A DNA stretch of 64,000 nt from a virus. Shown piece by piece: positions 1 through 64,000 of the stretch. Location of the stretch: IMG/VR virus record IMGVR_UViG_3300032116_000031, positions 32,001-96,000 of that record; one strand, written 5' to 3'. Below the pieces are notes generated by a model, which saw nothing but the letters and a program-made list of their open reading frames with translations, did not search any database and was not told the origin of the DNA. Numbering within the stretch: the stretch's first letter is position 1; the number at the start of each line of letters is the position of its first letter. The position numbers were made by a program, and so were the translations under genes.

Positions 1-1811
1 ATTTCAACTGCTATATTTCCGTATAAAAATTCTTCACAACCGAATCCCATAACATTAGGGCAATTAACATCAGGCACATTCAATACATTCAAATTATAGG
101 GCGTTTCAGTTGCTATTCTAGCTGCATTAACAATAAAACCTGTTTGAGCTGAATTTTGAACTTCTAATTTTAATGGATTAATAGTGTTACCAATTAAATC
201 TACTAAAAAGTTATTAGTATAATCAATTGCTTTCCATTGGCTTGATACAGGTCTTGCACCGTTATCTACTATTTGGTAAAGTATTTTAAAACGGTGGAAG
301 CTAAAACCTAAACCATCATAACCTACTGCTTCTCTTTGACGCATATAGGGTAATAGCCCTGTTCTTTCCATATAGAATTCAACATCTTTATCTGAAGTTG
401 TTGTATTGACAAATTTCAGATATTGTTGTTGTGGTAATATATGTTGTACTACTGTATCTGCTTCCAACGTATATGTCATATACATTGTTTTTCCTTTAGG
501 TAGTATTCCTGTTCCAGAGGTGGACGGCGAAATCATTTTTCCCGCTAATTTTGGTAAGGTGAAATTACGATTTGCCTTATAACTCAAAGCCCCTAATAAA
601 TCAGGATTATGGATAACTACTATTTGAAGAGTGTTATATATTCTTCCAACAACCAAAGGTGTACCACTAGGCTGTATTAAAGTAGAATCTTCAACTAAAT
701 CATAGTACTCAATATTTGTATTTGCTACATACTTCTTAGTGGTATCTGCAACAAAAGTCATTCCCAAAACATTGCCTGTACCTGATCCTCCAGCAAAATA
801 CCTTCTATGCCACATTATATGTTGCAACTGTAATTTGAAATCGTTTGGTTCGGCAATATAAAAATGCTCACCATATAAATTAGTCTTATTGGTATTGCTA
901 TAATGTATAATACCTATGGACCTAATATAGTCATCATCAATCGCAAATAATTTATCTTCACAATTAGGGTTAGGGACTTCATCAGGGCAATCAACATTGA
1001 ACCCTAAATACTCTTTTTCGCCTATGTAATTGTAAGAGCAATACTCATTGAATTGCTGTTGCTCATCTTGAGTACCTATAACATTTTCACCCCAAATAAT
1101 ATTGAAATTCCAAACGTAAGTATCTTCATTTAAGCACTCCAACTTAAAATTCAAATTCTCGTAATCCCATAAAGTATTTACATTTGTCGATTTATAATAA
1201 TCTATATCTTTATCGTAAATGTAATATTCAATCAATAAATCATTATAATTCAAATAAGGTAAATTCCTATCTAATTCAATTATAGTAGAAGTAGGAGATT
1301 TGTAAATTTTAAAGAAAAGGTACAACACAGGTTGAGTAGTTGCAGATGGAGCAATGTATCCTGTTGTTGGATTAGCAATCTTAAACATAATAATATCACC
1401 ATCTTCAAAATCGGTGTTTTGAAGATCGATGAATTTAGTTCCATTTAATTGCTGTGAAAAAACATTACCTTGTTTCTTTACAAACTTGCTATCTAATTTA
1501 ATAGAGTAGTTTTTCGTTTCATCAAAAAAGCCTCTTTCTTTCGCAGGGTTATGAATACAACATTCCAACACTTTTACGCCGTCCAACACCTGAAACGGAT
1601 TACAATCTTCAGCTGTTAAGAATGTTTTCAAATTAGGATTCTTATCTTTGGGTTTCAAAACGAATTGAGAGCCAGTGTTGTTATAATCAACTTGACTATC
1701 ACCAAAAGAATAATATTTAAAATTCAAATTACCTTCAGCTATTTTTTGCCGTCCAACAGCGGTAATTTTTGATGAAATTAACGGTACGTTTATTTTATTT
1801 AAAAAGCTCAT
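1..1811 (-). CDS. Virion structural (baseplate/tail) protein, 3' end outside the window
   Basis: Not in the ORF track because it has no stop in the window. ATG at 1811 overlaps the stop of the upstream ORF (ATGA) and reads MSFLNKINVPLISSKITAVGRQKIAEGNLNFKYYSFGDSQVDY; the TxxGR...FGDxxVDY start is typical of phage tail/baseplate proteins. Confidence 0.6.
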   Translation of the reverse strand, partial: MSFLNKINVPLISSKITAVGRQKIAEGNLNFKYYSFGDSQVDYNNTGSQFVLKPKDKNPNLKTFLTAEDCNPFQVLDGVKVLECCIHNPAKERGFFDETKNYSIKLDSKFVKKQGNVFSQQLNGTKFIDLQNTDFEDGDIIMFKIANPTTGYIAPSATTQPVLYLFFKIYKSPTSTIIELDRNLPYLNYNDLLIEYYIYDKDIDYYKSTNVNTLWDYENLNFKLECLNEDTYVWNFNIIWGENVIGTQDEQQQFNEYCSYNYIGEKEYLGFNVDCPDEVPNPNCEDKLFAIDDDYIRSIGIIHYSNTNKTNLYGEHFYIAEPNDFKLQLQHIMWHRRYFAGGSGTGNVLGMTFVADTTKKYVANTNIEYYDLVEDSTLIQPSGTPLVVGRIYNTLQIVVIHNPDLLGALSYKANRNFTLPKLAGKMISPSTSGTGILPKGKTMYMTYTLEADTVVQHILPQQQYLKFVNTTTSDKDVEFYMERTGLLPYMRQREAVGYDGLGFSFHRFKILYQIVDNGARPVSSQWKAIDYTNNFLVDLIGNTINPLKLEVQNSAQTGFIVNAARIATETPYNLNVLNVPDVNCPNVMGFGCEEFLYGNIAVE

Positions 1812-4333: not shown

Positions 4334-6924
4334 TATGTTAAAATATTACTATAAGAATCAGGTACGTTCACTTGTGTGCAATTTACTCTTAAACTATAAT
4401 TATCAGTGTATTCACATCCGTTAGATAATGTAATCACTATATCAATATCTAAATCAATAAAGTTTAGTCTAGGTGTGAAATCCACGTAAACTGCTTTTAC
4501 TCCATTTTCATTATTGAATATTTCTGTTATCACATTTCCAATCAACACGCCTGTTCCACCTGATCCTTTAGTTATGGTCATAACAACTGTATCAACGGTC
4601 GCATCAAAAGGTACGTTATCTAACGAATATGTAACGTTAATTCTTGTATTCGATACATCTAAATTAGAAACACATTCACCCGTAGAGTCTAATTGTATGA
4701 AGTCACATTCAACAGGTGTTTCATTGCATTCTATTAAGCGCGTTATTATGCCGCTGGTACATCCAAGTGCATCTATAACTTCAACAGCAATAGTTTCACC
4801 ATTCGGTAATAAATCGCCGTTCTCATTACCATTAACAATATAAGGAGCCGTACCACCACTATAAGATAATAATACAGTTGCATCCCCAGTAAGATTGCCA
4901 TTTAGATCGTAGTTACAAACATAACTTAATGAAACAATGATAGGATTATTAACACATTCAGGTATATAACAATAAGTTGTTCCAGTTAAAGTTAATGATT
5001 CACAGCCTATACTGTCTTCAATGTAAACAGAATAAGGTTGATTTACTGGAAATATATCACCATCATTAGCACCATGGAATATATACGGAGGAATTCCACC
5101 ATACCCTTTAACATTAAGTTTTATTTCATCTGGACCTATACATTCTTGCCAAACATCAATTATAGGTCCTGTACATCCAGAATAAAGTATTTTGGGTTCT
5201 AAGTGTATTTGTAGGGCTTGATCGTTATTTTCTATTTCACAACCGCACTCATCAAACAATGTTTCTTTAAGAACATCATCTACAACACCGCTTTGGGAAA
5301 AGTAACAAGAATCTGGTGCCAAATAGTAATCAAATGTGGTGCCTGATCCTTCAAATCCGTATTCATATAATGATGTTTGAGTGATTTCTCTATTTGTTAT
5401 TGTTTTATATTTACCGTTCAAATTCTCGTCTAAGACATAGAATTGTGACCAATAATCAGAATCTTCAAATATGTAATTAGACCTGTATTTAGGATAGCCA
5501 TCTTCATCAACTGAAATATTCAATAGTTCATCGTTACCGTAAATAATATTAAGATACTGTTTGAGCAGCGTAACATCTATTGGACCGCTAATTTTCTTAA
5601 TATGTTCCTTAAAGTTAATTAACTCTTTTGGGATATTAAAGAAATCAAAAATAAACTCTACTGCTGCTCTTGTTCCTTTCGATTTAACTAACCAAGTGAG
5701 AACTAAACCTAATTCCTTCTTCTTTTCTAATGGTAGGGTTTGATTTATTTTTATACCATGGGATGAAATATAATAATCCAATAATTCTATTGGCATATTA
5801 TCTTCACCATCATAGGTTAATATATTAATATTTTTTAGGCTGTTAACAAACTTATATTGTTCATCGAATCCAAAAGCATAAACTGATAACAGTACTTCTA
5901 ATTTATCCCCTTGATTTTCTGTACTTTCAAAGTTTTCTAATATAGGTAGAAATAGGTTTGGTTCTACATATTTTCTAAGAACAAGGTTTGTTTCATATTC
6001 ATCTTGTTTTTTAGCGTAATTTATTAGAATTTCTTTGAATGTATCAAATTTAAAGGTGCTAAGGTCTACATTATATTTATCTGTTTTTGGGAATATAATT
6101 GTTAGGTTATATTCCAGTATATAATTTCTATCAGTTAATTTACTATCCTTAAAGTCTATATAGAAACCATCTTCTTTTTCATTTCTCATTAATATAGAAA
6201 CGAATAGAGGAGAATTATCTGTGTATTGGGTTTTTATGGTGGTGGACGGCGAAATGTAGGATATTTTACTATGGTTGCCTATCTCAAAGGGCTTACCTTC
6301 AACTTCAATAGACATGAAGCTGTTTTTAAATTTAGGAGCCCCTTGGAAATTGGTAATCCTATATTTTTCGCCGTCCACCTCAAACTCATAATCCCCAAAC
6401 CAATCTTTTAAATTCCTGTACTTAGAAAATTTCTCTCTATTGTTTAAATCAATATTAAGATAATTAATATCTAAGGGATTATATAAGAAATTAGTATTAA
6501 CTACAAAACTACTCCTATTTGTTATAGGATTGTAAGAAACATTCAATATGTTAAAACCGCTGGTACCATTAACATTATCCTCAATGATAATAGCAGCAGG
6601 GTAATTATAATAAATGTAATCTAAAGCTTGTAAGAAGTTTTTTTCAACTGAACTATATTTTATAAAGCTGGTTAAATCCTTTTTGTTGACTTGAAGGGTA
6701 ACATTCTTAAAAGCTTCATTAGTAGTGGATGGAAGTACAGCTACATTCTGAACATCGGCTAACGTATAACTTATAACGTTTTGAAATACATTATAAGAAT
6801 TCGTAATCTTAGTAGAATTCAAATTAGACGTAACACTGAAATCGCCCGCTTGTACCAGATAAGTTATAAAGGGCGTTGCAGTGTTTGTTTTGTGTTCATT
6901 GTAGGGAATATAGATATACTTCAT
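4333..6924 (-). CDS. Putative baseplate/tail protein with C-terminal SprB-like repeats
   Basis: 863 aa; KSKGTRAAVEFIF resembles the phage tail/baseplate (P2 gpI-like) KGT motif; two GGxxPY...DxxGC repeats near the C-terminus. Confidence 0.55.
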   Translation of the reverse strand: MKYIYIPYNEHKTNTATPFITYLVQAGDFSVTSNLNSTKITNSYNVFQNVISYTLADVQNVAVLPSTTNEAFKNVTLQVNKKDLTSFIKYSSVEKNFLQALDYIYYNYPAAIIIEDNVNGTSGFNILNVSYNPITNRSSFVVNTNFLYNPLDINYLNIDLNNREKFSKYRNLKDWFGDYEFEVDGEKYRITNFQGAPKFKNSFMSIEVEGKPFEIGNHSKISYISPSTTIKTQYTDNSPLFVSILMRNEKEDGFYIDFKDSKLTDRNYILEYNLTIIFPKTDKYNVDLSTFKFDTFKEILINYAKKQDEYETNLVLRKYVEPNLFLPILENFESTENQGDKLEVLLSVYAFGFDEQYKFVNSLKNINILTYDGEDNMPIELLDYYISSHGIKINQTLPLEKKKELGLVLTWLVKSKGTRAAVEFIFDFFNIPKELINFKEHIKKISGPIDVTLLKQYLNIIYGNDELLNISVDEDGYPKYRSNYIFEDSDYWSQFYVLDENLNGKYKTITNREITQTSLYEYGFEGSGTTFDYYLAPDSCYFSQSGVVDDVLKETLFDECGCEIENNDQALQIHLEPKILYSGCTGPIIDVWQECIGPDEIKLNVKGYGGIPPYIFHGANDGDIFPVNQPYSVYIEDSIGCESLTLTGTTYCYIPECVNNPIIVSLSYVCNYDLNGNLTGDATVLLSYSGGTAPYIVNGNENGDLLPNGETIAVEVIDALGCTSGIITRLIECNETPVECDFIQLDSTGECVSNLDVSNTRINVTYSLDNVPFDATVDTVVMTITKGSGGTGVLIGNVITEIFNNENGVKAVYVDFTPRLNFIDLDIDIVITLSNGCEYTDNYSLRVNCTQVNVPDSYSNILT

Positions 6925-6930: not shown

Positions 6931-7836
6931 TTACGGACCAGTTATTATATTAAATTCTTGTGTAAAGTCAATATCAGTTCTGTTTTCTTTGACTTCATAT
7001 AAATTCTCATTTGTGAAGTCATCTTTAATAACGTATTCATTGAATTGCTTGTAAATTTCGTTATCGTTATTGTAGTATGTTCTAGTACCATTTTGTATAT
7101 TCTTAGCTTGATTACCAAAAATACCTATTGCTAATGTATCTATATCGTGTTCTACCAATTCTAACTCTAATGCAACAGGGTCAAAATAAGTATTCGATAT
7201 TATAATTTCCTGATTTGGAACACCAATATAAGGGAACGCGCTAGGTTTTACGTTGAAAGCGGTGGACGGCGTAACAGTGCAAAATAACAACGTAGATGCG
7301 TCATTTAATCTATATTTAATAGATTTTTGAGTGGTTGTATTTAAGTTATCAGAAATTGGCTCAACCCTAAAACAAGAAGTTACAATCCTAAATAAATTTT
7401 GCACCTTTCTTTCTGTTACATTCAAAGCCGTATTGATATATTCAATACGGTGGCCAATTAATCCATTATTCTCGAACATAAATAAGTCCTCTGGTGGAAC
7501 AGTATTCAAATCAATTATAATACCTTTAATATCAGGCTTTGCAGCTAAAACACCACAATCTAAAATTCTTAACTTAACTTCTTTAGGTCTAATATAAACA
7601 GTGTATATACCCAACTGATTGAATACATTTGTAGGCAATCTTAAATTATATAATCCACCTAATATCCTGTTTGTTTGAGTCGGATGATCCAATTTAAACA
7701 ATATTTGACTTGGATTAAGAGGAGTTACTACTGTTGGTGCAACCGTCCGATCAGCTATGTAAGTGTAATAAGCTTCGACATCTGTTGCGATATTAATATC
7801 TGCTGGTCTTATATTTCCAAAAGTTCCTGTTGCCAT
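6931..7836 (-). CDS. Conserved hypothetical virion protein
   Basis: 301-aa ORF tightly coupled within the structural operon. Confidence 0.5.
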   Translation of the reverse strand: MATGTFGNIRPADINIATDVEAYYTYIADRTVAPTVVTPLNPSQILFKLDHPTQTNRILGGLYNLRLPTNVFNQLGIYTVYIRPKEVKLRILDCGVLAAKPDIKGIIIDLNTVPPEDLFMFENNGLIGHRIEYINTALNVTERKVQNLFRIVTSCFRVEPISDNLNTTTQKSIKYRLNDASTLLFCTVTPSTAFNVKPSAFPYIGVPNQEIIISNTYFDPVALELELVEHDIDTLAIGIFGNQAKNIQNGTRTYYNNDNEIYKQFNEYVIKDDFTNENLYEVKENRTDIDFTQEFNIITGP

Positions 7837-8660: not shown

Positions 8661-9372
8661 ATAAATCTATTTTCAGGGTGTTTGCAATATATTGTAAGGT
8701 ATTACCATTCGTATCGAATACAAATTCCTTTCCTGTGAAATTAACTTTAACGTATTCATCTAAATTTGTAACAGTTGCATTTGTTAAATTTTTATATGGA
8801 TAGAATTTATAAGAAACGCCGTCCAACGCATTATTAAAATTAAAAGTAACATACAAAGAAAATGGAGAAATATATTCATTCTTAGGTAGATAAATATAAA
8901 AGCCTTCCGTTTCATTTATTGCAACAGTTGGATTTTTTATTTTAAAAACCATTGGAATATCGTTAGTTAAACTTGTCAAACCATAAATGTCTAATAAATT
9001 TGACCTCTGAACAAATATATCACTTTGAAACTGTAATGTTTGCTGTAATCTGTCAGGTGAATCGTAATAAAAGATATTTAAAAAAGAATATCTCAATCTG
9101 TTATAAAAATAAAACACATCTGACCCCGTAAAACCCATATCACCATAGGTCATAGGTACTCCTTCTTCTTTAAAAAGAGTAACTATAATTTCGTCTACCC
9201 CAGCAAACATGTATCTGGTTATTTCATAATCTTCTTGTTTAGGGATAGCTTTTAAGACCTGTTCTGTAACAAAAGACTCTGATATAGCCTCATCTTTATC
9301 TGCAACATCGAAAGACAAGTCTAACGGTATTATGAAATCAGTGTCTAATCTTTTTATTTTATATTTTAACAT
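8644..9372 (-). CDS. Hypothetical (probable structural) protein
   Basis: 242-aa ORF in the operon. Confidence 0.5.
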   Translation of the reverse strand: MLKYKIKRLDTDFIIPLDLSFDVADKDEAISESFVTEQVLKAIPKQEDYEITRYMFAGVDEIIVTLFKEEGVPMTYGDMGFTGSDVFYFYNRLRYSFLNIFYYDSPDRLQQTLQFQSDIFVQRSNLLDIYGLTSLTNDIPMVFKIKNPTVAINETEGFYIYLPKNEYISPFSLYVTFNFNNALDGVSYKFYPYKNLTNATVTNLDEYVKVNFTGKEFVFDTNGNTLQYIANTLKIDLYALIT

Positions 9373-10883
9373 ATCTTTTCAACGTCTATTATTTTGCTAG
9401 GGGTTAAATCAATACAATTTCCAGCTATTAAAGCATTGCTTCCAATATCGTATCTATTACATGGATCCTGTCTTTTTATGAAGACATTGAAATTAGAATA
9501 AACGTAGTGATGCTTATTTAAAAATGGATACCCGTCAGTAATAGTTATATTTCTCCATTGCCTAATCCCATTAATATCTTCTGCGTAATCTGGTACTGTT
9601 ACTACTCCATCATCTTTAAATATTATATCTGATAGATCTCTTATTTGTTGTCTATAATGAGGTGTATAATAATAAGATTCGCATAATGTATTATCTAATC
9701 TGTTTTTTGTGTTGAAGATGTGGACGGCGAAATTTAACTCCGTTTCAAGCATAACCGACTTATTATATTCAACTATATTACCAAAAAAATACTCTTGGGT
9801 TGTAGTTAAAGTTTCAACAGGTAATAAAGTACCCCCTTGATAAACAGTATTGAAATCATAGTTGATATTAGAAATAGAAACATTAATTGCGCTTAAAGTT
9901 TCACCCCAAAAATCGCTATGTTTATTCTTGACTACCGTAACAAATAATTCAGTTAAAGGTCTATTCAAATTATCCACTAAACCTTCAATATTCACCCCTT
10001 CAGGATACACAAAAGAAACATTGGTGTCATTGTATATGTTTTTAGAGAAAGACGTTCTGAAGGCATCGTAGTCGCTAATTTCAGTTAATTTCTTATACCA
10101 TCTGGAATAATACTCCGATTCATAGTCCCCTATCACCTTTTTAAACCTGTATTTATCAGCTACTACATCTGTTATAAAATCTAATTTCTCATCAACAAAA
10201 AAAACATTCTTTTTATAACTGTTATCGTTGGTTCCAACTTGATAAACAGTGCATTTCTTTACAAAGCCATTCACATTGTAAATGTTGACGCTATCACCAG
10301 CAGCTAAATTGTGTGTCAGAGGGCAAGCAAAATAAGTTAACATTTTTCCATCGACCTCTGCATCAGCAGAACCCATTAAAGCAATCCCTTCTGAAATATC
10401 AATTCCATTAAATAGTAAAGGCTGCAAGTTTTTTTCAGCAGAATAGGTGACAAACAAACTCCATTCGTCTTTTTTTGTTAGATTAAATCTTTCTTTCTTT
10501 GGTTCTAATTCTGTTCTATTGCAAGGGGTTTCATTATCCTTATAATAAAACCAACCTTTGTCTTTAAACAATACTTGATCTAAAGTATATCTGTCTAAAC
10601 CTGTTTCAGGATCAAAATATTTAAAATCCTCCACTGATTCATAACCATTGACTCCATCGTAATTACATAAAATATTGGTGCCAACTAAAAATATATTTCC
10701 ATATATTCTGTAATCAAAAGATTTACTTCTTTCTTCTAAATAAACCTCATAATTAGATACCGTTTCCCTAATAACATCAATAGGCAATAAACTAGCATCC
10801 TGTTGTATATCTAAGTTTAGATGAGTATCTTCTTCAGAAGCTAAAAGAAATCTTTTTGAAGGTAATAAAAATTTATTTTCCAT
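9366..10883 (-). CDS. Hypothetical (probable structural) protein
   Basis: 505-aa ORF in the operon. Confidence 0.5.
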   Translation of the reverse strand: MENKFLLPSKRFLLASEEDTHLNLDIQQDASLLPIDVIRETVSNYEVYLEERSKSFDYRIYGNIFLVGTNILCNYDGVNGYESVEDFKYFDPETGLDRYTLDQVLFKDKGWFYYKDNETPCNRTELEPKKERFNLTKKDEWSLFVTYSAEKNLQPLLFNGIDISEGIALMGSADAEVDGKMLTYFACPLTHNLAAGDSVNIYNVNGFVKKCTVYQVGTNDNSYKKNVFFVDEKLDFITDVVADKYRFKKVIGDYESEYYSRWYKKLTEISDYDAFRTSFSKNIYNDTNVSFVYPEGVNIEGLVDNLNRPLTELFVTVVKNKHSDFWGETLSAINVSISNINYDFNTVYQGGTLLPVETLTTTQEYFFGNIVEYNKSVMLETELNFAVHIFNTKNRLDNTLCESYYYTPHYRQQIRDLSDIIFKDDGVVTVPDYAEDINGIRQWRNITITDGYPFLNKHHYVYSNFNVFIKRQDPCNRYDIGSNALIAGNCIDLTPSKIIDVEKIC

Positions 10884-13356: not shown

Positions 13357-15174
13357 TTAGAAGGCAAAATTAATCTTTATATCTGTTTCAGGGAATTTAA
13401 TTTCATATATTTCATCGTATTCCACGAACAAAGTTTGGTGAAGGCTTAAATCTATTTCCTTTGTAGTCGCATCCACGAAAGGCATTGAAGTTTGATTCAA
13501 TGAGTAATTACCGCCTACTTTATTAAAGATTCTTATAGATGTAACATTTAATACATTACCTATGTTATTTAGGGATTCTATTAAATCAGATAGGTATATG
13601 TTATTTCCAAAATAATTCTGTGTAGAGAAGTAGGATGTTATTTGTTGGACGGCGTTTCTTAAAATTTCTACTTTATCTGAAGTCTTAGTTACATATAAAG
13701 TTATATCAAATCCTATATTAATAATCTTTCCATCCCTAACTAAAATATAATCATTTATTGATCTATATTTTGACAAGTAACTAGCTATATTCTCTTTTAA
13801 GGTAGTTGTAGATTCATTCGTTAATTTTGAATTTTCATCTATACCGCAAATAACAACTTCAATTTTATTATCTAACTTCGCAACAGATGTACGGTATGGG
13901 GCACCGAAATTACCAGACATTAAATTTATTCTGTTATAATAATCTTCCAACGTGATACATCTATTTTGAGCTGAAAAATTAAACTTAATTAGATTTCTTA
14001 ATTCTTCAATGGTTAATTGATCCTTACCCCCAAGTGCAGGTAAAGGATTATTAACTTTAACAGATGCCTTAACCAAGGCGTTTTTAGTTTGATTTGTTCC
14101 ATTAACAATAATGTTAATGTTATTAACGGTATTTAAAACATTTGCACCGATATTCGTTCTAAGACCTCCACCTGTCCTATATTGTATGAATAAAGTGGTA
14201 TTTGTTCTGGGGATTGAACCTAAGCTATTATTATTAATTTCGCCGTCCAACTGCTTAAACAACAAATCATTATTAGCTACATAATCCGAAAAGAAAGAAG
14301 TATCTTGACTTCCATTTCCAAATCTAACAAAACAATACCCTTTATCAGTATATTCAGTCATATACTTATTATAAACAGTCTTCCATTCTCCCACCTTAAT
14401 AGCTGAATTATCAGAAAGAGCTTGTGGTTTCTCAATAAAAACTTGTTTTTCAGCTAAACTGTCTACTTGATACCATTTATTGCTTTCTGTTTCCCATTCA
14501 ACAAGCGTAGGCAATCTACTATAATCAGTGCCATCTAAACTTATTACCCTATCAATAGATATAACATCATTATCAGGTAAAGCTATTTCTAAGAAAGGAA
14601 CTGTATCGCTTGACGTTATTACCTTTTTATAAAATTTAGTAACACCATTAGATACTATCTCTCTTTTTGTGATAGTGTAAGAAACTATATTTCCTGTTGA
14701 ATCAATATTAGGTACAACAGTTCTATTTGGAACACCTGTCTGTGAGAAAGGAGAAGCAAAGTCAACATCATTCAATGTTTCAAAAATTAAGTTTGCTCCT
14801 GTTATTTGTGCGCCTCTTACAATAATAGGGCAATATTGTAAATCAAAACTATTACCGCTTACAGGTAAATCAACTGAAATATCACAAATGGTGATAGACG
14901 GTGACTTAGAAGTGATTTTTAAACCGAAGGTTCTGGCGATAGCATATAAAGAACGTCTTTCTTGAGCATAATCGATATTGTTTTCCTGATACGCTCTATC
15001 CGTATTAAAAGATAACATATCACCCACAGCCGCATTTAACTCTATTAGCATCATGCCTATGCTAGCATCATTAAAATCAACATAATAATCAGGGTAATTA
15101 TTTTTTACAAACGTAACTAACTCATTCCTGATTGAGCGAAAATCTCGGCTATAATAGTTTATCTTTTTTTCCAT
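13357..15174 (-). CDS. Baseplate wedge subunit (T4 gp6 / baseplate J-like)
   Basis: YYSRDFRSIRNEL...DFNDASIGMMLIEL...GDMLSF at the N-terminus, YRTGGG, GGKD...SAQNRCITLEDY. Confidence 0.85.
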   Translation of the reverse strand: MEKKINYYSRDFRSIRNELVTFVKNNYPDYYVDFNDASIGMMLIELNAAVGDMLSFNTDRAYQENNIDYAQERRSLYAIARTFGLKITSKSPSITICDISVDLPVSGNSFDLQYCPIIVRGAQITGANLIFETLNDVDFASPFSQTGVPNRTVVPNIDSTGNIVSYTITKREIVSNGVTKFYKKVITSSDTVPFLEIALPDNDVISIDRVISLDGTDYSRLPTLVEWETESNKWYQVDSLAEKQVFIEKPQALSDNSAIKVGEWKTVYNKYMTEYTDKGYCFVRFGNGSQDTSFFSDYVANNDLLFKQLDGEINNNSLGSIPRTNTTLFIQYRTGGGLRTNIGANVLNTVNNINIIVNGTNQTKNALVKASVKVNNPLPALGGKDQLTIEELRNLIKFNFSAQNRCITLEDYYNRINLMSGNFGAPYRTSVAKLDNKIEVVICGIDENSKLTNESTTTLKENIASYLSKYRSINDYILVRDGKIINIGFDITLYVTKTSDKVEILRNAVQQITSYFSTQNYFGNNIYLSDLIESLNNIGNVLNVTSIRIFNKVGGNYSLNQTSMPFVDATTKEIDLSLHQTLFVEYDEIYEIKFPETDIKINFAF

Positions 15175-15762: not shown

Positions 15763-16974
15763 AACATTCTTATTAAGAATACGCTGCAAATCGAAATTTA
15801 ATAGCTTCAGGAGATTTTCTTCTCTTACCGCTACCATAGCGTGTTCAGGGTGAATATGTGTTGCCAACACATCCCTCATTAAACTTAATAGCTCAACAAG
15901 GCGATCACCGTAAGGTATTGGATGGCCTTTTTCAGCTAAATTAACAATATCTGCATCTGTAACTAAATCAGGTTGTTTCTTTAAATCAAATTCATTGTTT
16001 AAATGACTAACCAGAAATATTTTATCAGATACAGTTAAAGAAGTTGAAAAATCCAAATACTTTTCAACTAATATATTTTCCTCCCTATTCGTATCTAACG
16101 GTGTTGGAGGATATAATTTAGGTAAAGCAGCTAAAGATGGATCTGTAGAAGTTAGTTTCCACAAAGGATATGTTGACTGTAAAGTTAATAATTGTGATTT
16201 AATCTCTACTACTAATTCATCTTTACTGCTTTTAGTATATCTAGTCGAAGATATTACTTTAATATTTGTAAGATTTGATATGTCTTTAACTATTATTGTC
16301 GCAGCAAAATCGCTTATGAACTGCACCACGAATTCAATTGTAGGATTCTTAAATGTTTTTACATTAAGGTTTTTCTTTTCTACCTTTTTATCTTTTTTCT
16401 CTGGAAAGCTTAATAACTGATACGATGGATTTACTTTATTAAATTTTAAGGGATTATTAAGCTCATGCCCACCTACCCTCAAAAGTAATTGTCTTTCCTT
16501 TAAGAATATATTAACATTATTTCTACCGTTAATTGAAATTTCATCTTTCTTTGCAAAAATACCTTTACTTTCAGCAATAGTAGAAGATTTCTTTGGATAC
16601 TTCAATATACCATCAGGATAATGCCTGTTACTTTCGTAGGCAAAGTCTTGATTTTCTATATTGTATACATTTGAATGTACTACACTGATCCAATATCTTA
16701 TATCTTTACTGTTGTAATTAGAAGTATTATAAACATTCCTAAACATTAAAGTTACTCTTTCACCTACTTTTGGTAGTATTCTGAAGAAGGAAAAATTAAA
16801 TAAAGGGAAACATAAAGGTAAGTCTTCGTCATTTAAAGCAGTGTCTATCTCTTTAATCCTAACCCTAATTATACCATTCTCTTCGCCGTCCAACAAACTA
16901 ACGACTTCCCCTTCAAATATATTTTTACTATAAAAAATATCCGAACGACTACTACTAAATTCAGATGAAAACAT
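15751..16974 (-). CDS. Baseplate spike/hub protein (gp5/gpV-like OB fold)
   Basis: GEVVS..D....GIIRVRI...LPKVGERV N-terminus; C-terminal HxH (THIHP) tip motif. Confidence 0.7.
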   Translation of the reverse strand: MFSSEFSSSRSDIFYSKNIFEGEVVSLLDGEENGIIRVRIKEIDTALNDEDLPLCFPLFNFSFFRILPKVGERVTLMFRNVYNTSNYNSKDIRYWISVVHSNVYNIENQDFAYESNRHYPDGILKYPKKSSTIAESKGIFAKKDEISINGRNNVNIFLKERQLLLRVGGHELNNPLKFNKVNPSYQLLSFPEKKDKKVEKKNLNVKTFKNPTIEFVVQFISDFAATIIVKDISNLTNIKVISSTRYTKSSKDELVVEIKSQLLTLQSTYPLWKLTSTDPSLAALPKLYPPTPLDTNREENILVEKYLDFSTSLTVSDKIFLVSHLNNEFDLKKQPDLVTDADIVNLAEKGHPIPYGDRLVELLSLMRDVLATHIHPEHAMVAVREENLLKLLNFDLQRILNKNVLTG

Positions 16975-20425: not shown

Positions 20426-21208
20426 TTAACCTTCATATGTTATATGTCTGTCTTCACTGAAGAAATATTCTTTTTTTGCTAAGTCTTGATAAAATTTAAT
20501 TTCAAGTTTATCCAAAGAATCATAGTATGCCGTTAGGCTACCTTCTCTCTTGATTCTATGTCTAACCATTAATTTAGGTATTACCATTACTTCGGATAGC
20601 TGATTCAAAATCCTCAAGAAATATTCGTATTCAAAGTATTTTTTGATACTATGTTTATATCCGCCATTATCAATAAATTCAGCTGTTTTGTATATAGCTG
20701 ATGTAAAGGAGAACAAGGACATTTTCTTCAATGTTTCAAAATCCAAATACCCTTGTTTATCTGTATAATTCATACTCCATGCTAATTCATTCACCATATT
20801 AGTAAAGGATTCGCCGTCGAACTCCAAGTTAATAGGAAGGAATACTGATACATTTGGATATGCTTTTGAATACTCTTCTGTGTATGTTACAAAGGTATTA
20901 TTTAATACGTCGTCATATTGTAGTACGGTGAAGTAGGGCGTGGATATGGAGGTTTGGACGGCGAAATTAATGACCTCCGTATAATTTGGATAAAGTTCCC
21001 TCAATTCCTCTGGAAGATCAAGGAAGTTTAATTTCAAGCCAAATGTATTGGATGCTTCTACTTGCTTTTTCAAATCCGCAAAAGTAGCAACCAATATATC
21101 GAAGTCTTTACTATCTTGTTTAGCCAATGACTCAAACATTTCTATAATATAGCTATCTTCGACATCTAGCTTATGAATTGGTATAATTACTGTTAATTTA
21201 TTGCTCAT
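20426..21208 (-). CDS. Glycosyltransferase family 2 (GT-A)
   Basis: LTVIIPIH N-terminus, YFTVLQYDD (DxD-like), GGY...EYEYFLR. Confidence 0.75.
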   Translation of the reverse strand: MSNKLTVIIPIHKLDVEDSYIIEMFESLAKQDSKDFDILVATFADLKKQVEASNTFGLKLNFLDLPEELRELYPNYTEVINFAVQTSISTPYFTVLQYDDVLNNTFVTYTEEYSKAYPNVSVFLPINLEFDGESFTNMVNELAWSMNYTDKQGYLDFETLKKMSLFSFTSAIYKTAEFIDNGGYKHSIKKYFEYEYFLRILNQLSEVMVIPKLMVRHRIKREGSLTAYYDSLDKLEIKFYQDLAKKEYFFSEDRHITYEG

Positions 21209-47097: not shown

Positions 47098-48483
47098 TTA
47101 ATTTTTATTTTTTTTGTTAGCTTCTAATGAACTTGTTATATTAAAGTCTTCTATTTTAATTTTGACCTTAGCATTATTAAATATGCAATTTTCAAATTTC
47201 AATCGACCCTGACCTAAGCGATTTTTCCAAAAGTTTACATTGGCTAATGCTGATATTTCTTGCTCTTCATCTTTACCAACGGTGATCAATACGTGAGCTA
47301 TCTTTAAAAGGTCAACGGAGCCACCTAACATCGTCGGTAAGACATCTTTCATACCATGTGAATCCTTTTTACCTTGAATCAAAACCCACGCAGCACAATT
47401 GAATTTTTCCTCGCTTATTGAATGTTCTATTTGTCTTAAAACCTCTGGACCAGCCATAAAATCTCTTTCACCATAATCCTTTTCACTTTTAATACAATCT
47501 AAATAGTCAATAATAATCAAATCCAATTTATGCCCTAATACTTTCTCGATGTAAAACATTGTTTGTTCAATATCACTCCATTTTGTATTAATAGCATCAA
47601 ACTTTTTAACAATTAATCTACCACCTGCTTTCTCCCCTTTCTTCAGATATTTTTTGCATTCTAATTCTACAAGTTCTTTGTTTTTATTTTTTCTAGTTTC
47701 ATTGATTTCCAATCCAGTCCAATGTGCTTGGAATTTAGAAATCAATTGATCTTGAGCACCTTCAAAATAAACGTACAATACTGTCTTACCTTGATTGAAT
47801 GCTGCACTAGAAGTAACAACAGAGAAAGTAGTCTTACCAACGCCGTAACCAGCCCCTAGAACGCATAAATCGCCTCTTGAAGGCCCACCACTTAAAGCAC
47901 TATCGAAAGACACTCCTAGGCCAGTTGAGATAGGAATTCGGTTCATATCATCAACTGTTTTAAATGTTTCGCTATCGAAGATTAACGGTCTTTTTTCTAA
48001 GTCATTAATCTCAATAGATTTTCTCACTTTATCAACAGCATCTTCAAAGGATTTGATTTTATTCTCCTTCAATCCTTTTCTAATAGAATCTACTGATGTG
48101 AAGAAGTTTTGTTGTTGAACAAAGTTTTTAGCGTTGTTCCTGATATGATCTACGTTTTCAATAACTACGTTTTCAATATCATCTAAGAACTGAAAAAAGA
48201 TTTCTTTATCTTCTTTACTCTGTGAGGAGTATATTTCCCTAATCGTATCGTAGAAAGGAATACTACGGTATTTTTCGTAATATTCCTTCACGATAGATAA
48301 AAGAAACTTTGAAGATGGAAGAAAGAAGTGATTGCTTTTTAGAATAGGTAAAATTGTAAGACCAAAATCAACATCTCTGTAAATTTCCTTTCCTTTAAGG
48401 ATTCGCCGTCCAATCACCTGATTCCAAAATTTAATCTCAAACCGTTCACCAAAAAATGAAAGGTTTTCGTTCATTGTATCCAT
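47098..48483 (-). CDS. dnaB: DnaB-like replicative helicase
   Basis: GAGYGVGKT Walker A, YFE, IIDYLD, KNRLG. Confidence 0.88.
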   Translation of the reverse strand: MDTMNENLSFFGERFEIKFWNQVIGRRILKGKEIYRDVDFGLTILPILKSNHFFLPSSKFLLSIVKEYYEKYRSIPFYDTIREIYSSQSKEDKEIFFQFLDDIENVVIENVDHIRNNAKNFVQQQNFFTSVDSIRKGLKENKIKSFEDAVDKVRKSIEINDLEKRPLIFDSETFKTVDDMNRIPISTGLGVSFDSALSGGPSRGDLCVLGAGYGVGKTTFSVVTSSAAFNQGKTVLYVYFEGAQDQLISKFQAHWTGLEINETRKNKNKELVELECKKYLKKGEKAGGRLIVKKFDAINTKWSDIEQTMFYIEKVLGHKLDLIIIDYLDCIKSEKDYGERDFMAGPEVLRQIEHSISEEKFNCAAWVLIQGKKDSHGMKDVLPTMLGGSVDLLKIAHVLITVGKDEEQEISALANVNFWKNRLGQGRLKFENCIFNNAKVKIKIEDFNITSSLEANKKNKN

Positions 48484-48530: not shown

Positions 48531-49091
48531 TTAGAGTTGATAACTATTTACACAGAAAGTGTTTTTAACGCCAGTGAAAGGAGTGAAAAATCTGTTTGTG
48601 TAATAATTCAAAGATAACAAGTCTTTCAACAAACTTCTGATACCTTTAAAATTAGGACCATCTTTCCAAATAGGGAGAATAGATAGTTGAGGAACAGCGT
48701 AGAAATCATTAGCATTAATTTCTTGCTGATAGATTACCCTTACTTCTTTTTCATCTGTTAGTTTACCTTGATTTCTCACTGATGCTGAATGGTCAACTAA
48801 TTTAAAGATGTAACGTGAATTTGGGTTTTGGTGGGTGGACGGCGAAATTCCGTTCTCATAATTTTTGTAAAGATAATCCTCCGTAATACCCCTCATATAA
48901 TCATGGAACAAGCCAGTAATCTGTTGAAAGGTGTGAACAATCTCTACTGAATTTTCAACCGCTAAATCAGGGTTTCCAAATTCTTTTGGTGTGGCAAAGA
49001 AATTCAACATAGACATCTCTTGTGCTGTTGAACCATCGTAGTAAATCAAGTGAAAAGTAAATTTTGTAGTAAACTCTTGATTTTCTTTCAT
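48531..49091 (-). CDS. Hypothetical protein in the replication operon
   Basis: 186-aa ORF. Confidence 0.5.
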   Translation of the reverse strand: MKENQEFTTKFTFHLIYYDGSTAQEMSMLNFFATPKEFGNPDLAVENSVEIVHTFQQITGLFHDYMRGITEDYLYKNYENGISPSTHQNPNSRYIFKLVDHSASVRNQGKLTDEKEVRVIYQQEINANDFYAVPQLSILPIWKDGPNFKGIRSLLKDLLSLNYYTNRFFTPFTGVKNTFCVNSYQL

Positions 49092-56200: not shown

Positions 56201-58269
56201 CCATTGTTAACAAATGTAGCAGGATCTAAAGTATTGATAAATTTTAATATCTTATCATTCTCTATTTGGTCTATAAAATAAGATGCTTCTATTTCAGAAT
56301 AACTTATAACATAATTTTCACCATTAAAAGGATCAAAAATACTGTAAGAATATAATATTCTCAAACGTTTCAATATTTCTTTATATAGTTCGCTTAGGGT
56401 TGCATCACCGTAATCAAAGTTTTGGCTTAAAGATAAACCATTTTCCCTATAATCAAGAATGTTTATAGGTATCCATTTATATATGGCCGTAGGACTAAAA
56501 GAATATGGGTTATCAGGTATATCAAATAACTCGTTTGAAGTTAAGCCTTTAATAATATCATTTACTATTTCCAATTCTGGAAAGTTAGGATTATTGTTTC
56601 CAACTACGTCACCTAACCATATTCTTTCTCCATTTGTATCAAATACAGCTGGGAATGGGTAAATTTTATTTTCTGATATAGGAATATCAGTTGAACCTCC
56701 TGATAAATTACTTTGAATAGAATAATAGTCTTTTAACCCTTGAATCCTAATATCGCCTATGCTTTCAGCCTTTCTACAAGTTTCATATAATATATTTAAA
56801 AATACATCAACGTTGCCGAAGATTATTTCAAATACATTATATACAGTTGGATTAAAGCCAATATCAGTTGTGAATGCCCCGTTAAGCTGATCTACTATTT
56901 TTTCTTCTAATTCTGTTTTTTTATTTTTTAGTAATTTCCTTTTTTCGTGCACATTATCTCTAACACTATAAAAAGAATAAAAGGAAACAGGTGTGAATGA
57001 ATCAAACTTGCTCTGTATGAATGTTATACTACTCTGATAATTAGATAGATAACTTGTGTTTTCATTTGAAATTATTTCTGTATCAATAATTTGAAGTAAA
57101 GCGTCGTTTACATCATTATAAGAAATAGATTTAGATAATGTAAAATTATTTAAAAAATAATTGTTTAAGTCAGGATATTTACCTTTGTTTAAATTAATTA
57201 AGCTATTATACTCGTTAATTAAGCTATTAACGTTATTTTGCATTTCATCTAAATTAGGAATTAGTTTATCCGAAAATAAACCTATATCTCTAAAAAAGTA
57301 ATATCCTTCTCCTGTTTTAAATTGTTCATAGTTTAAGTTTAACCCTGTTGGGTTTGTTATTAGTTTGGACGGCGAATTAATAATTTCTGTTATTTCATCT
57401 GCTTTTATCTGTAACGTATTAATAATAGTTAATTGAGAATAATCAGTATCCTTCTGTTTAAACTTTTCAGTATAATTAGCAATTTCAGTATATTTTATTA
57501 ATAATTCGGTTATTGATGATAACCCAATAGATCCATCTTTTTTTATGTAATTCTTTAAATAATCTTTACCTGCATTAGTGGCATTCAAAGCCATAACGTA
57601 TTTAGTAATAACATCAGATAAAAAGGAAAACTGATAACCTAAAAATTTACAATTAATAATGAAATCACTACTACCCTCATCAAACGAAGCTTTAAAATCA
57701 ATCATGTTTAAATAGTAAGTAGTAGGCCGCCCATAGTAACCCTTAACTGTTAATTCATAAATTGGATAAGGTAATCTAAAAAAAGAATTATATTTAGATA
57801 TATTTTCAACGCCTTCGCCATCGAAATACTCATAATTATTAAAAACAGCTGAACCCTTAACATCAACAAAATCAATTTCCACCTTTGGAGGTGTCATCAT
57901 AGCAGTTTCGATTGAAATTCGGGTAATACCTAATCCTTCATGAGTAGTTTCATTTAAACCTATGTTGGTATAATTGGTAGTTAAATAACCTGTTTTACCA
58001 TCAGCCTCATTCTCACTGGAAGTAGCAATAAAAGAAATAGAATCAGCTTCCCTACTCTTAGAAGAGTAAACATTATCAGAGGTAATAACACTCCTATTTT
58101 GAGGGAAAGATCTTAGTCTAACAAAGATAAACAAGTCTTCAGGGTTAACCAAAACATTGTCTGTTGGATTAGGATCAACAACGTAAGTGAAGAATGGAGT
58201 TTTGCCGTCAGGACCAGTTCCACTGTTTATAGTTCCTACATTGTAATTATAATTACTTAAATTAGCCAT
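53203..58269 (-). CDS. Large baseplate hub-like protein with C-terminal CHAP/NlpC-P60-like domain
   Basis: 1688 aa; VECLGN..I.PT.YF.L.NVP.F.G...I.SV.H.I (gp27/gpD-like hub end); CATWAR...THVGIF Cys/His pair. Confidence 0.6.
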   Translation of the reverse strand: MANLSNYNYNVGTINSGTGPDGKTPFFTYVVDPNPTDNVLVNPEDLFIFVRLRSFPQNRSVITSDNVYSSKSREADSISFIATSSENEADGKTGYLTTNYTNIGLNETTHEGLGITRISIETAMMTPPKVEIDFVDVKGSAVFNNYEYFDGEGVENISKYNSFFRLPYPIYELTVKGYYGRPTTYYLNMIDFKASFDEGSSDFIINCKFLGYQFSFLSDVITKYVMALNATNAGKDYLKNYIKKDGSIGLSSITELLIKYTEIANYTEKFKQKDTDYSQLTIINTLQIKADEITEIINSPSKLITNPTGLNLNYEQFKTGEGYYFFRDIGLFSDKLIPNLDEMQNNVNSLINEYNSLINLNKGKYPDLNNYFLNNFTLSKSISYNDVNDALLQIIDTEIISNENTSYLSNYQSSITFIQSKFDSFTPVSFYSFYSVRDNVHEKRKLLKNKKTELEEKIVDQLNGAFTTDIGFNPTVYNVFEIIFGNVDVFLNILYETCRKAESIGDIRIQGLKDYYSIQSNLSGGSTDIPISENKIYPFPAVFDTNGERIWLGDVVGNNNPNFPELEIVNDIIKGLTSNELFDIPDNPYSFSPTAIYKWIPINILDYRENGLSLSQNFDYGDATLSELYKEILKRLRILYSYSIFDPFNGENYVISYSEIEASYFIDQIENDKILKFINTLDPATFVNNGLAYNFTNDDVTIAPYQFNDNNTGLVFSPISFIDNSNLQYLAGDRASYTSKALSPALNTYFADTKTIQAFIFRNLINPDYFIFDQNYFNVTADLTNVFNNDDLNKYLKNISSGSAASISSMYNLNVIDGTAAGIVGADTTSGNVSGDRANNSRYKIGRSITQYKQFVKIFDLFYYDKNNINAKAFLFLETIGYKDYYHFREYANKFSCVLNMTELYVAYIGGILKHSHQIHYQGYNFLVDDIKSDPEYTNVGDYNARYNRTWVPKSEFENLLSDEGFKFFVDAFDKFVEEYNAGGFSNYVYNYVTFDPKSDNTIGEYETAFDTILNRIKAYKEVAIISPRELFKQPIIEPNSNVISKYLSGFINAAKKFINTKLTEKQRIRQDEINNIITDKNIKIQIYEHLKNIYDKWLSYSTVDGKIYNFANYFVNGNTDTKKKLIDHCYFIDRTWSYIGDKAVLNPKPLLIYANQTDGNIYFLMSRVLKDNNFNIYNIPSFVNYYDKQDVMEMFKPFTTLNENVNFSDDKPTGGSCFVFQYVAGNSKVLDLNNRVGYFNDSFDFNANAIIDTNLPKSILNRNISQTQLTGADLKDYLAKYNLSVFRVAYADQNQNIFKRIEVSQQEHRETAESILILNELAGGKGATKRLYTGMDLYNVYAVRSYSTTVECLGNTQILPTQYFQLDNVPLFHGAHMITSVKHEITPNNMTTTFSGMRISKFTYPIIDKMTTFLNLELSNSISSSELTVPLSNESDFSNGEDRGTVNTNSKNIDSTILREIQQTGAGSANTALNSQNTLFTIEYRGAVAKFSVSTSVNTAVLNTELSNLFTSNNVSTFGLGNNVCATWARTALEQLGVVRIGAVDKIGDAWNWFMGLPEDGRMGYFTANDKLNNWSNSDLVAKGIPNGSLLFGYSQGSSFKTKAYNQMNDPVNFPNRTSRKNIMRTNNRSPMNSNFDFSVVTHVGIFYNNQFYNLVSSRVKQEPDSGFVPIAFYPFLDKLRNIVANN

Positions 58270-62461: not shown

Positions 62462-64000
62462 TTAAAATGGACCTGTGTTTCTACCGCCATTTGAATTAGT
62501 ACCTTTAAATAAATTTTCTATGTCTTGTTTAAATTTATTATCTTTTGATAAATCTACTTTTGTTGAAGGCTTACCATTAACATTAACATCAATTACAAAT
62601 GGTGCACCTGTTGAGGATACCTGAATCTGACCATTAGTTGTATTTGTTGTTGTATAATTTCCACCTGTTTGTTGTTGGACGGCGTTTGCTGATTTAAGAG
62701 TATTATCTTGGGGTTTAAATGATGTGTCTTTATTTTTATCTTTATCTGTAGGTGGTGACATTATACCTAAACCTGTTAATGTAGCATAAGTTAAAGGATT
62801 AGTAAACAACAACCCTTTTTTAACAGTGTTAATAAAACCAGTACCCCAATCTTCATCTCTAACAAATTTACCCGCACTTTCAGCTGCCCCTTGCTTTGCT
62901 TTATTTACAGTGTCAATTCCTTTATATAACTTACTATCAGGATCCCTTAACATTTGATTAAAATAAAATACGCCGTCTTTTGCATTTTTAGTTTCAATCG
63001 CTAAGGTTTCTAAATTATTAGAAGATTCTATTACTTTTTCTGCAAAATGTTGTAATTTTTCCACCATAGTTTGATTAGCTGTCGCTAAACTATCAAAACT
63101 ACTTTTTCCTTCTTCTGATGTTACTGTACTTAATCTTAAAATTTCTTGTTCAGTTAAATCTCTAACTGCTTTCGTTTGACCATCTACTTTAACAGTAGCA
63201 ACTCCTTGCTCAAAACTAGCCATTCCAGCTATTTTAGTTGCATATTCTCTTAAATTGGGTGATAACGTTCTTTCAATAATATCTTCTTTTTTCCCTAATT
63301 TAGCTTGTTGAGCTAATTCTTCCACCGATTGACCCGTTATTTTTGATAAATCTCTTAATGTACGATTTTCCATAGATGAAAGGTCAATCATACCTGTTTG
63401 CTTATTTAAAGCACCCATCCCTTTTGTAACTTCTGATAACTTTTCAGTGAAAGCCTCTAAATCGTTATTAGCGTCATATAATAAACTAAATGGATCACCC
63501 AACTTAGCAAATTCCCCACCTAACATTTGTAAACTTGCCGCAGCCTCTATCGCTCCTTCAGGGTCATAAACTTGGTCAGCAAAATTAGATATAGATTCCA
63601 TTTTCATACCTAATGCGTTAGCCTTTTTAACCATTTCACCTAATCCAGCTACACCATTCTTAAAATTAAATTTATCTATTAATCTAATATTGCTTTCAAT
63701 ATCATCAAATACTTTTTTAGTATTTAAACCTAACTTATTAACCTTTTTGTTTGTCTCATCTAAAAAATCAAAAGTATTTTCAATTGATGCACCGTATAAT
63801 TTAGTTAACCCGAATAATTCATTATAATTTTTACCTAATGTGTTAGAAATTTTAGTCATATCTGTCAATTCATCACCAGATAACATTATATTTCTACCGT
63901 AATTTTCAGTAAAAGTTTTATATGTTTCAGTTAATTCTTTTTGACCAAAACCTAAATCTTTTGTTTTACCACCCGCTATTAAGATATTTTCTTTGATTTG
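62462..64000 (-). CDS. Tape-measure-like protein, 5' end outside the window
   Basis: The frame stays open from 63886 to the window end; helical Ala/Gly-rich sequence (PEGAIEAAASLQMLGG); upstream of hub and LysM genes. Confidence 0.7.
   Translation of the reverse strand, partial: QIKENILIAGGKTKDLGFGQKELTETYKTFTENYGRNIMLSGDELTDMTKISNTLGKNYNELFGLTKLYGASIENTFDFLDETNKKVNKLGLNTKKVFDDIESNIRLIDKFNFKNGVAGLGEMVKKANALGMKMESISNFADQVYDPEGAIEAAASLQMLGGEFAKLGDPFSLLYDANNDLEAFTEKLSEVTKGMGALNKQTGMIDLSSMENRTLRDLSKITGQSVEELAQQAKLGKKEDIIERTLSPNLREYATKIAGMASFEQGVATVKVDGQTKAVRDLTEQEILRLSTVTSEEGKSSFDSLATANQTMVEKLQHFAEKVIESSNNLETLAIETKNAKDGVFYFNQMLRDPDSKLYKGIDTVNKAKQGAAESAGKFVRDEDWGTGFINTVKKGLLFTNPLTYATLTGLGIMSPPTDKDKNKDTSFKPQDNTLKSANAVQQQTGGNYTTTNTTNGQIQVSSTGAPFVIDVNVNGKPSTKVDLSKDNKFKQDIENLFKGTNSNGGRNTGPF

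Follow-up and report, generated by a model that had tools for sequence, protein, structure and literature searches.

Why should a phage genome carry the same nine bases over and over again inside its genes? The question is raised by a 64-kb stretch of viral DNA (hereafter the window), bases 32001–96000 of a virus record of 136,214 bp and 31.5% GC (IMGVR_UViG_3300032116_000031, here G000), in which an earlier note, made by eye from the sequence alone, had picked out 26 exact copies of the 9-mer TGGACGGCG, 15 on the plus strand and 11 on the minus strand. A recount recovered every one of them in place. The comparisons reported here indicate that selection writes and keeps this element in a single narrow clade of T4-like phages whose gene signals are of Bacteroidota type, and that its copies arise by point substitution where the proteins tolerate the change, in either orientation and at near-random spacing. 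Taken together, they point to an undescribed phage-specific recognition signal.

The excess of the 9-mer over chance is very large. In 100 dinucleotide-preserving shuffles of the window it occurred 0.01 times on average and never more than once, and in the whole record 67 copies (39 plus, 28 minus), or one per 2.0 kb, stand against 0.37 expected under an order-3 Markov model. The other strongly over-represented 8- to 12-mers of the record were all pieces or extensions of TGGACGGCG. The earlier note had proposed a codon- and amino-acid-preserving null; when synonymous codons were shuffled within the 121 called genes of the record (n = 200), 6.5 copies remained on average and never more than 9, compared with the 67 observed, and the excess stands. 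As six intergenic copies lie beyond the reach of such a shuffle and are counted in each total, codon usage and amino-acid content account for only about 0.5 of the 61 copies that lie inside open reading frames (ORFs). All 26 window copies belong to the latter group, as had been claimed. The word is sharply defined, with some tolerance at its last base only: all 27 one-mismatch variants together occur 17 times in the record, against 67 exact copies. Six of these near copies fall in the window (at 1747, 20812, 24790, 50020, 54951 and 59358), that is, the four named before and two further ones. The GC content of about 28% on which the first rough estimate was based corresponds to the lower end of the measured range of 28–32%. 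An assembly artefact, which would have undone the claim, is ruled out, since the stretch is present in sequencing runs of 16 studies and the motif also occurs in independent IMG/VR contigs from many samples.

The 9-mer is not the whole of the element. Each window copy is preceded by G or T and followed by two A/T bases, as first noticed (position −1, G 10 and T 16; +9, A 18 and T 8; +10, A 19 and T 7). The same flanks were seen more clearly when sites from the record and three relatives were pooled (130 of 139 sites, after nine with CAAT behind the core, the mark of the protein repeat described below, had been dropped): G 84, T 32 and C 1 at −2, G or T in 126 and C in none at −1, never C at +9, and A or T exclusively at +10. 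From about −25 to −3 on the motif strand all frame classes show more G (G > C) and less C and A, even the two antisense classes, in which the coding bias runs the opposite way, and the G/T-rich flank is found at intergenic copies as well. It shows a three-base periodicity, as would be expected if a push towards G/T were met at synonymous positions. The consensus is about 20 nt of G/T-rich DNA followed by G-K-TGGACGGCG-W-W-W, and these constrained flanks on the motif strand define a functional unit of about 30 nt that is strand-asymmetric. At its core stands KTGGACGGCGWW; the whole consists of a G/T-rich, C-poor 5′ flank, G-K-TGGACGGCG and an A/T-rich 3′ flank. The 9-mer itself is non-palindromic, its reverse complement being CGCCGTCCA.

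In the window the core is read as L/V-D-G-E/V/D in 13 copies (counting that at 29697, whose L-D-G-E was read by hand in ORF 29546–30106), as S/T-P-S-T/K in six, as F/N-A-V-Q/H in six and as G-R-R in one, which bears out the frames given in the earlier note. For the whole record the classes are L/V-D-G-x (28), x-P-S-x on the opposite strand (16), x-A-V-Q/H (8), G-R-R (2) and W-T-A (7), besides the six intergenic copies. The seven W-T-A copies were treated as a special case: they lie in the repeated peptide WTAQFHN of three giant plus-strand genes (986, 1620 and 1319 aa; record 2–11938, locus L245) and, unlike all other copies, have C after the core. The DNA of this peptide, TGGACGGCGCAATTCCATAA, is identical in all seven copies while adjacent synonymous sites vary.

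Relatives bearing the motif were found by a pattern scan and protein-guided searches of IMG/VR. They are syntenic with the record, share about 69% DNA identity with it, and carry the motif as follows:

G001, 39,746 bp: 28 copies, reversed control 0
G002, 13,276 bp: 7 copies, reversed control 0
G003, 24,364 bp: 16 copies, reversed control 0
G004, 66,198 bp: 49 copies, reversed control 0

Density in these syntenic relatives is one copy per 1.4–1.9 kb, and one per 1.4–2.2 kb in the clade overall. Where DNA could be aligned, sites of the record met an exact 9-mer in 14 of 20 cases in G004, 10 of 15 in G001, 7 of 9 in G003 and 1 of 2 in G002, against a background of 4.4–7.3% of all aligned 9-mer windows kept exactly. 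This pattern indicates that purifying selection keeps the sites. Turnover is also evident, as only 14 of 35 aligned G004 sites are the motif in the record, the remainder often being near-matches such as TAGACGGTG. In the relatives the sites are matched, with no gap in the alignment, by ordinary 9-mers such as TAGATAATA, and in the outgroup described below by other codons, from which it follows that copies arise by substitution and not by insertion. A mobile miniature element inserted in frame (RPE-like, or a GC cluster) was rejected on the same ground, given that the sites align ungapped to unrelated 9-mers.

The outgroup consists of two phages, G410 (184,534 bp) and G411 (125,583 bp), whose capsid protein is about 62% identical to that of the record. 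Neither contains a single copy, and no other dispersed over-represented word was found in them. A different ‘dialect’ word in these sister phages was considered and rejected: the top words of G410 (locus L330) come from a 69-bp tandem coding repeat of at least 11 units (L330:16000–19100), which gives spurious over-represented 9-mers. Further out, at capsid identities of 43–52%, 80 of 80 loci had no copy. When 32 sites of the record were aligned to the G410/G411 proteins, the 9-mer was present at none of them and the central dipeptide (DG, PS, AV or GR) differed in 26 and was the same in 6, with replacements such as LDGE versus IQNY, SPST versus KPIE and IGRR versus IGEL. The changed dipeptides show that the DNA word was installed at the cost of amino-acid changes. 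The alignment of orthologues that the earlier note had suggested for following gain and loss of sites with amino-acid change has shown conservation, turnover and replacement alike; and its central proposal, selection on the DNA rather than on a peptide, is supported by the synonymous-shuffle null, by exact site conservation at about 69% identity and by the replacements relative to the outgroup. The window copies, with the peptides they encode and their state in relatives and outgroup, are as follows:

521..529, plus: motif copy, antisense to ORF 3–1811 (minus), S-P-S-T
1577..1585, minus: motif copy, sense in ORF 3–1811 (minus), L-D-G-V
6243..6251, plus: motif copy, antisense to ORF 4333–6924 (minus), S-P-S-T; outgroup K-P-I-E
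6369..6377, minus: motif copy, sense in ORF 4333–6924 (minus), V-D-G-E; outgroup V-G-E-V
7263..7271, plus: motif copy, antisense to ORF 6931–7836 (minus), T-P-S-T
8817..8825, minus: motif copy, sense in ORF 8644–9372 (minus), L-D-G-V
9721..9729, plus: motif copy, antisense to ORF 9366–10883 (minus), F-A-V-H
13646..13654, plus: motif copy, antisense to baseplate-wedge-like ORF 13357–15174 (minus), N-A-V-Q; exact 9-mer in G001 and G004
14241..14249, minus: motif copy, sense in ORF 13357–15174 (minus), L-D-G-E; G001/G004 have TAGATAATA/TAGACAATA; lineage-specific site
16884..16892, minus: motif copy, sense in ORF 15751–16974 (minus), L-D-G-E; kept in G001 and G004; outgroup E-D-R-F
20955..20963, plus: motif copy, antisense to ORF 20426–21208 (minus), F-A-V-Q; kept in G001, G003 and G004
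21746..21754, plus: motif copy, antisense to ORF 21198–22301 (minus), S-P-S-T; kept in G001, G003 and G004
24065..24073, minus: motif copy, sense in glycosyltransferase ORF 22965–24536 (minus), L-D-G-V; kept in G001 and G004
28570..28578, minus: motif copy, sense in ORF 28376–29563 (minus), L-D-G-E; kept in G001, G003 and G004
29697..29705, plus: motif copy, sense in T5orf172/MUG113-domain ORF 29546–30106 (plus), L-D-G-E; kept in G003
32957..32965, plus: motif copy, sense in ORF 32683–34329 (plus), L-D-G-E; kept in G001, G003 and G004; first of a tandem pair 33 nt apart
32990..32998, plus: motif copy, sense in ORF 32683–34329 (plus), V-D-G-D; kept in G003 only
34980..34988, minus: motif copy, antisense to family B DNA polymerase ORF 34750–38838 (plus), F-A-V-H; kept in G003 only
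38396..38404, plus: motif copy, sense in DNA polymerase ORF 34750–38838 (plus), L-D-G-D; kept in G001 and G004
38978..38986, minus: motif copy, sense in ORF 38874–39251 (minus), L-D-G-E; outgroup L-T-S-S
42757..42765, plus: motif copy, antisense to C-terminal ribonucleotide reductase piece 42639–43814 (minus), N-A-V-H
45096..45104, minus: motif copy, sense in N-terminal ribonucleotide reductase piece 44863–46026 (minus), L-D-G-V; kept in G001
48404..48412, minus: motif copy, sense in DnaB-like helicase 47098–48483 (minus), I-G-R-R; kept in G001 and G004; outgroup I-G-E-L
48836..48844, plus: motif copy, antisense to ORF 48531–49091 (minus), S-P-S-T
57366..57374, plus: motif copy, antisense to 1688-aa ORF 53203–58269 (minus), S-P-S-K; G004 and outgroup both L-P-T-K
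62676..62684, plus: motif copy, antisense to ORF 62462–63886 (minus), N-A-V-Q

Whether the word belongs to the phage or to its host was addressed by searching Bacteroidota genomes, a check also proposed beforehand. Only 2 of 120 gene starts of the record have a Shine-Dalgarno sequence; the leaders are A-rich, and several have TAnnTTTG-like boxes upstream, a combination which we take to be the Bacteroidota pattern. The 13-mer KTGGACGGCGAAA occurred at most three times per genome in 401 Bacteroidota genomes drawn evenly from the phylum and at most four times in a second sample of 401 genomes from the class (about 343 of them new), in both cases like the reversed control, and the bare 9-mer in the first sample reached at most 255 copies per genome, or one per 18 kb, never near phage density. 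These two samples amount to about 740 distinct Bacteroidota genomes, and the result covers those sampled. The highest ratio to the reversed control was that of the Bacteroidota genome G066, with 32 copies of the 9-mer versus 2; they are scattered over 25 contigs at about one per 122 kb, so this genome was rejected as a case of a host-borne motif, offering neither a phage contig nor a density comparable to that of the phage. A 16-letter form scanned across genomes gave at least 120 single matches and no locally enriched low-GC locus among the matches listed. When the whole of IMG/VR was scanned for GGKTGGACGGCGAAAW, 81 stretches matched and 80 of them were analysed; 16 were low in GC and held at least two copies, and 15 of these 16 align to the record. 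The sole exception, the contig L373 (8,330 bp, 10 copies), has no tblastx similarity to any relative compared and belongs either to a motif-bearing genome, as a part not yet sampled, or to a different element that uses this word too. With no enrichment in the sampled Bacteroidota, and with multi-copy low-GC loci in IMG/VR that nearly all align to the record, the signal can be assigned to the phage clade within the limits of this sampling.

These data bear on the possibility that the motif is a host-derived signal, namely an uptake sequence or a Chi of an unsampled host lineage, which the phage mimics or shares through molecular drive. Of the known systems, the uptake sequences of Pasteurellaceae (USS) and Neisseriaceae (DUS) have the closest anatomy to the motif. 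In these as in the motif, a non-palindromic core of 9–12 nt with an A/T-rich flank is in hundreds-fold excess and in both orientations, lies mostly in genes in a few preferred frames at a protein cost, forms inverted pairs behind genes, and keeps its orthologous positions while sites turn over. The hyper-abundant, mostly coding core in both orientations is found here too (67 copies versus 0.37; 39 plus, 28 minus; 61 of 67 in ORFs). The difference is that USS and DUS are part of a competent cell's genome and are recognised by that cell's uptake machinery, whereas the motif resides in a lytic-type T4-like phage clade and shows no matching density in the Bacteroidota sampled (13-mer at most 3–4, 9-mer at most 255 per genome). 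Phages rich in host Chi at the same density do exist, according to PMC12315714, and lend the host-derived explanation a precedent. It is nevertheless unlikely in our view, because about 740 sampled Bacteroidota genomes show no enrichment, the matches listed for the 16-letter form include no locally enriched low-GC locus, multi-copy low-GC loci in IMG/VR are confined to relatives of the phage and one unplaced 8-kb contig, and sister phages at about 62% capsid identity have no copies.

What, then, might the element do within the phage? Its many copies in either orientation, long asymmetric context, sharp specificity and conservation with turnover fit a polar, copy-number-dependent recognition site. 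We consider it about evenly balanced whether the motif is the recognition mark of a protein specific to this phage clade, the protein site itself being deduced from the selected DNA word. Such a protein would probably be phage-encoded, its effect would depend on many copies, and the mark would identify phage DNA as self. By analogy, the most likely mechanism, put forward tentatively and with clearly less confidence than the recognition mark itself, is Chi-like. A DNA-tracking end-processing enzyme would read the element on one strand, in the manner of Chi, so that resection, whether it began at a break or at a packaged end, would run only as far as the first copy in the right orientation. The G/T-rich 3′ tail thus left for the phage UvsX-like recombinase would feed T4-style recombination-dependent replication, and phage DNA would be spared degradation. 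It is possible, if doubtful, that the motif represents a phage-autonomous counterpart of Chi: a word of about 14 nt, preceded by a G/T-rich leader, that an enzyme encoded by the phage would read on one strand so as to tell self from host DNA without base modification, and of recent origin, the sisters being without it. Such a self code could act by stopping the phage's own or a host end-degrading nuclease and starting recombination-dependent replication there.

Among known systems, Chi comes closest to the motif in density and G/T-rich polarity. According to PMC12315714, the lambdoid phage LLS has one Chi per 1.86 kbp, compared with one motif per 2.0 kb here, and 20 of its 23 Chi sites share one orientation, as do 32 versus 0 in phage MD8. 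Both words are asymmetric and rich in G and T and have a purine-rich 3′ context, and recombination enzymes are encoded nearby.

Some of our observations weigh against the recognition mark as such and others against its Chi-like form. As to the former, G001 and G004, which are 97–98% identical, differ at 4 of 216 core positions, which is near the background of 2.3% and means that no core constraint is detectable in this pair. Some twenty genes are common to the motif-bearing relatives and absent from G410/G411; they are mostly of unknown function and none is decisive as the reader. Two candidate readers were rejected as not tied to the motif, the UvrD-like helicase, of which a homologue is encoded in the motif-free G758, and a 3′–5′ exonuclease, with a homologue in the motif-free G759. 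The reader gene may lie outside the record, which is probably partial and less than half a genome, since complete relatives measure 345 and 363 kb. A host-borne motif in an unsampled lineage is also possible. As to the Chi-like form, nine invariant bases plus flanks make the element longer than any known Chi, these being host words of 5–8 nt that are abundant in the host genome. No such short RecBCD/AddAB word enriched in a host was found in the data examined, nor was a RecBCD- or AddAB-like helicase-nuclease among the proteins scanned. The strong orientation of Chi in LLS and MD8 also has no parallel in the motif, and this phage carries its own recombination module, unlike the Chi-rich lambdoid phages as described in PMC12315714. 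After the protein-repeat copies had been dropped, 32 sites were on the plus and 28 on the minus strand, without bias, and runs tests on orientation revealed no patterning (z = 1.87 in the record, −0.10 in G004 and −0.46 in G003). An alternating orientation of copies was likewise not significant. A circularly permuted genome would not need an orientation bias. Finally, divergence between close relatives was not seen to be altered near motif sites.

The presence of copies on both strands also bears on a site-specific nicking signal, by which a phage nickase would cut one strand at or beside the motif and the nicks would serve replication, recombination or clamp loading. PMC3517423 describes in phage tf a non-palindromic 9-nt consensus, TACT/RTGMC, of which 14 copies in 46 kb (about one per 3 kb) are all nicked, and the motif resembles it and the nick sites of T5 and the phiKMV group in being phage-autonomous, repeated, non-palindromic and of similar length and density. 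It is equally sharp, with its 67 exact and 17 one-mismatch copies. On the other hand, the tf sites are all on one strand, as are the nicks of T5 and the phiKMV group, and the biological role of localized nicks is still unknown according to PMC3517423. The motif lies on both strands (15 plus and 11 minus in the window, 39 and 28 in the record), has about five times as many copies in the record, and forms convergent opposite-strand pairs 24–37 bp apart, at which cutting both copies would break the duplex. We therefore consider nicking rather unlikely.

Spacing was tested together with strand skew, as the earlier note had advised; no skew was found, and placement proved near-random. Regular spacing was rejected, with coefficients of variation of 0.74–0.88 versus 0.91–0.97 for random placement (P = 0.07–0.33), and so was one site per gene, as 43 genes carry a site compared with 41.0 expected. 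This is relevant to lagging-strand priming, in which the GC-rich core would be the recognition site of the primase and the G/T-rich stretch on its 5′ side the template. The spacing of 1.4–2.2 kb is within the range of Okazaki fragments, and the G/T-rich 5′ flank resembles T7 primase sites, which are G/T-only 5′ of GTC. Both orientations would suit T4-type recombination-dependent forks, and a candidate primase-helicase (BT4734-like N domain plus DEAD helicase) is encoded. Yet known primases, to our knowledge, read three bases and not nine or more, the candidate primase-helicase is also present in the motif-free G410 (34% identity), and the spacing is no more regular than random, all of which makes a priming role quite improbable.

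Neighbouring copies have an arrangement of their own. Within 80 nt, in all motif-bearing sequence examined, 7 convergent, 9 tandem and 0 divergent pairs were counted, two of the 7 convergent pairs being the same orthologous site. The intergenic convergent pairs form stems of 12 bp or longer. In the record, three intergenic copies 3′ of a giant gene form the hairpin GGGTGGACGGCG, 19 nt, CGCCGTCCACCC, which folds at −18.5 kcal/mol (z = −4.95), and L373 has four convergent pairs between small ORFs (DUF932, DUF3846 and a pentapeptide-repeat protein). No T run followed the intergenic hairpins examined. Such pairs and hairpins, as well as the fast gain and loss of sites, would be compatible with the word being a by-product, selfish or structural: near-matches might be turned into the exact word by biased repair or gene conversion, or a GC-rich building block of terminator hairpins might have spread. 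We give this little credence: 61 of the 67 record copies are single and intragenic, on either strand, where a hairpin role is impossible, the hairpins lack a T run, no mismatch-specific endonuclease family was seen, and positions could not stay conserved at 69% identity unless selection or drive kept acting at fixed places.

Other genome-wide words offer more distant comparisons. HIP1 of cyanobacteria and KOPS/SRS are likewise short G-rich words that occur about once per kb and are read in several frames of the coding sequence around them. The motif differs from HIP1, which is palindromic, and from KOPS/SRS, which are strongly skewed with the direction of replication, in being non-palindromic and without skew. 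Signal words of this kind, including uptake sequences and Chi, are known from cells; for phages, the known examples are either Chi taken over from the host or nick sites that lie on one strand and whose role is unknown. The present clade maintains a word of its own and pays for it in its proteins, while its close sister phages are without it. Comparing the two groups offers a clean system in which to study the origin of such a code, the protein that reads it and the possibility that phages mark self DNA by its sequence and not by modification, and the motif is also a simple in-silico marker of the clade in metagenomes. In open-access text and bioRxiv we found no description of such a motif or of a comparable system for T4-like or Bacteroidota phages, in agreement with the earlier note, and although the 9-mer or its complement turns up in 647 papers, the matches listed were primers or unrelated.

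Pfam and PHROGs matches identify the phage as a T4-like myovirus with a Gp23 capsid protein, Gp20 portal, prohead protease, sheath and baseplate wedge. Its replication genes include a family B polymerase, a DnaB-like helicase and a ribonucleotide reductase with an intein, and its recombination genes encode FEN, a UvsX/RecA-like recombinase and Rad50-like and Mre11-like proteins. An SSB-like protein and a UvrD-like helicase (both read by eye) and further helicases (BT4734-N/DEAD and SNF2) are also encoded. No DNA methyltransferase or transglycosylase family was found among the roughly 93 of 121 proteins scanned with Pfam, nine more having been scanned with PHROGs only. A MazZ-like dATP/dGTP diphosphohydrolase N domain, an HD-domain protein and an IMPDH/GMP-reductase-like protein are encoded at record 13703–17155 and 117291–118397; these purine-nucleotide enzymes may point to a change in the purine pool or to a modified base, and no PurZ-like match was obtained among the proteins scanned. 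Along with the two CpGs in the core, they are what speaks for a DNA modification target, whose two CpGs or core guanines would be methylated or hypermodified. As no methyltransferase or transglycosylase family was detected in that scan, and modification alone would give no account of a hundredfold multiplication of sites at protein cost, this explanation seems to us very improbable.

Several further features of the record were observed. An ORF at window 51222–52232 (minus) encodes a 336-aa protein without family matches, whose acidic tail ...DDSELPF is like the tip of a single-strand-binding protein and which adjoins the UvsX-like and FEN genes. The large subunit of the ribonucleotide reductase (window 42639–46026) is in two pieces with an ORF between them and HINT/intein signatures in the downstream piece. 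The insert is polymorphic in nature: 1618 bases (43398 to 45017) are missing from contigs of run X8, which have 12 other letters in their place, and the same stretch is absent from the relative L115. Two raw-read runs contained 11 and 7 reads, too few to judge read-end pile-up at the motif. A TnpB/OrfB_IS605 gene with a Cas12f1-like TNB domain is located at record 115985–117265 (L248:5985–7265, minus) and has a 31% identical homologue in the motif-free G410. Lastly, record 119488–122593 contains a caspase-domain peptidase (Peptidase_C14) and a CCA-adding/poly(A) polymerase-family enzyme as near neighbours, separated by an unassigned ORF of 363 aa.

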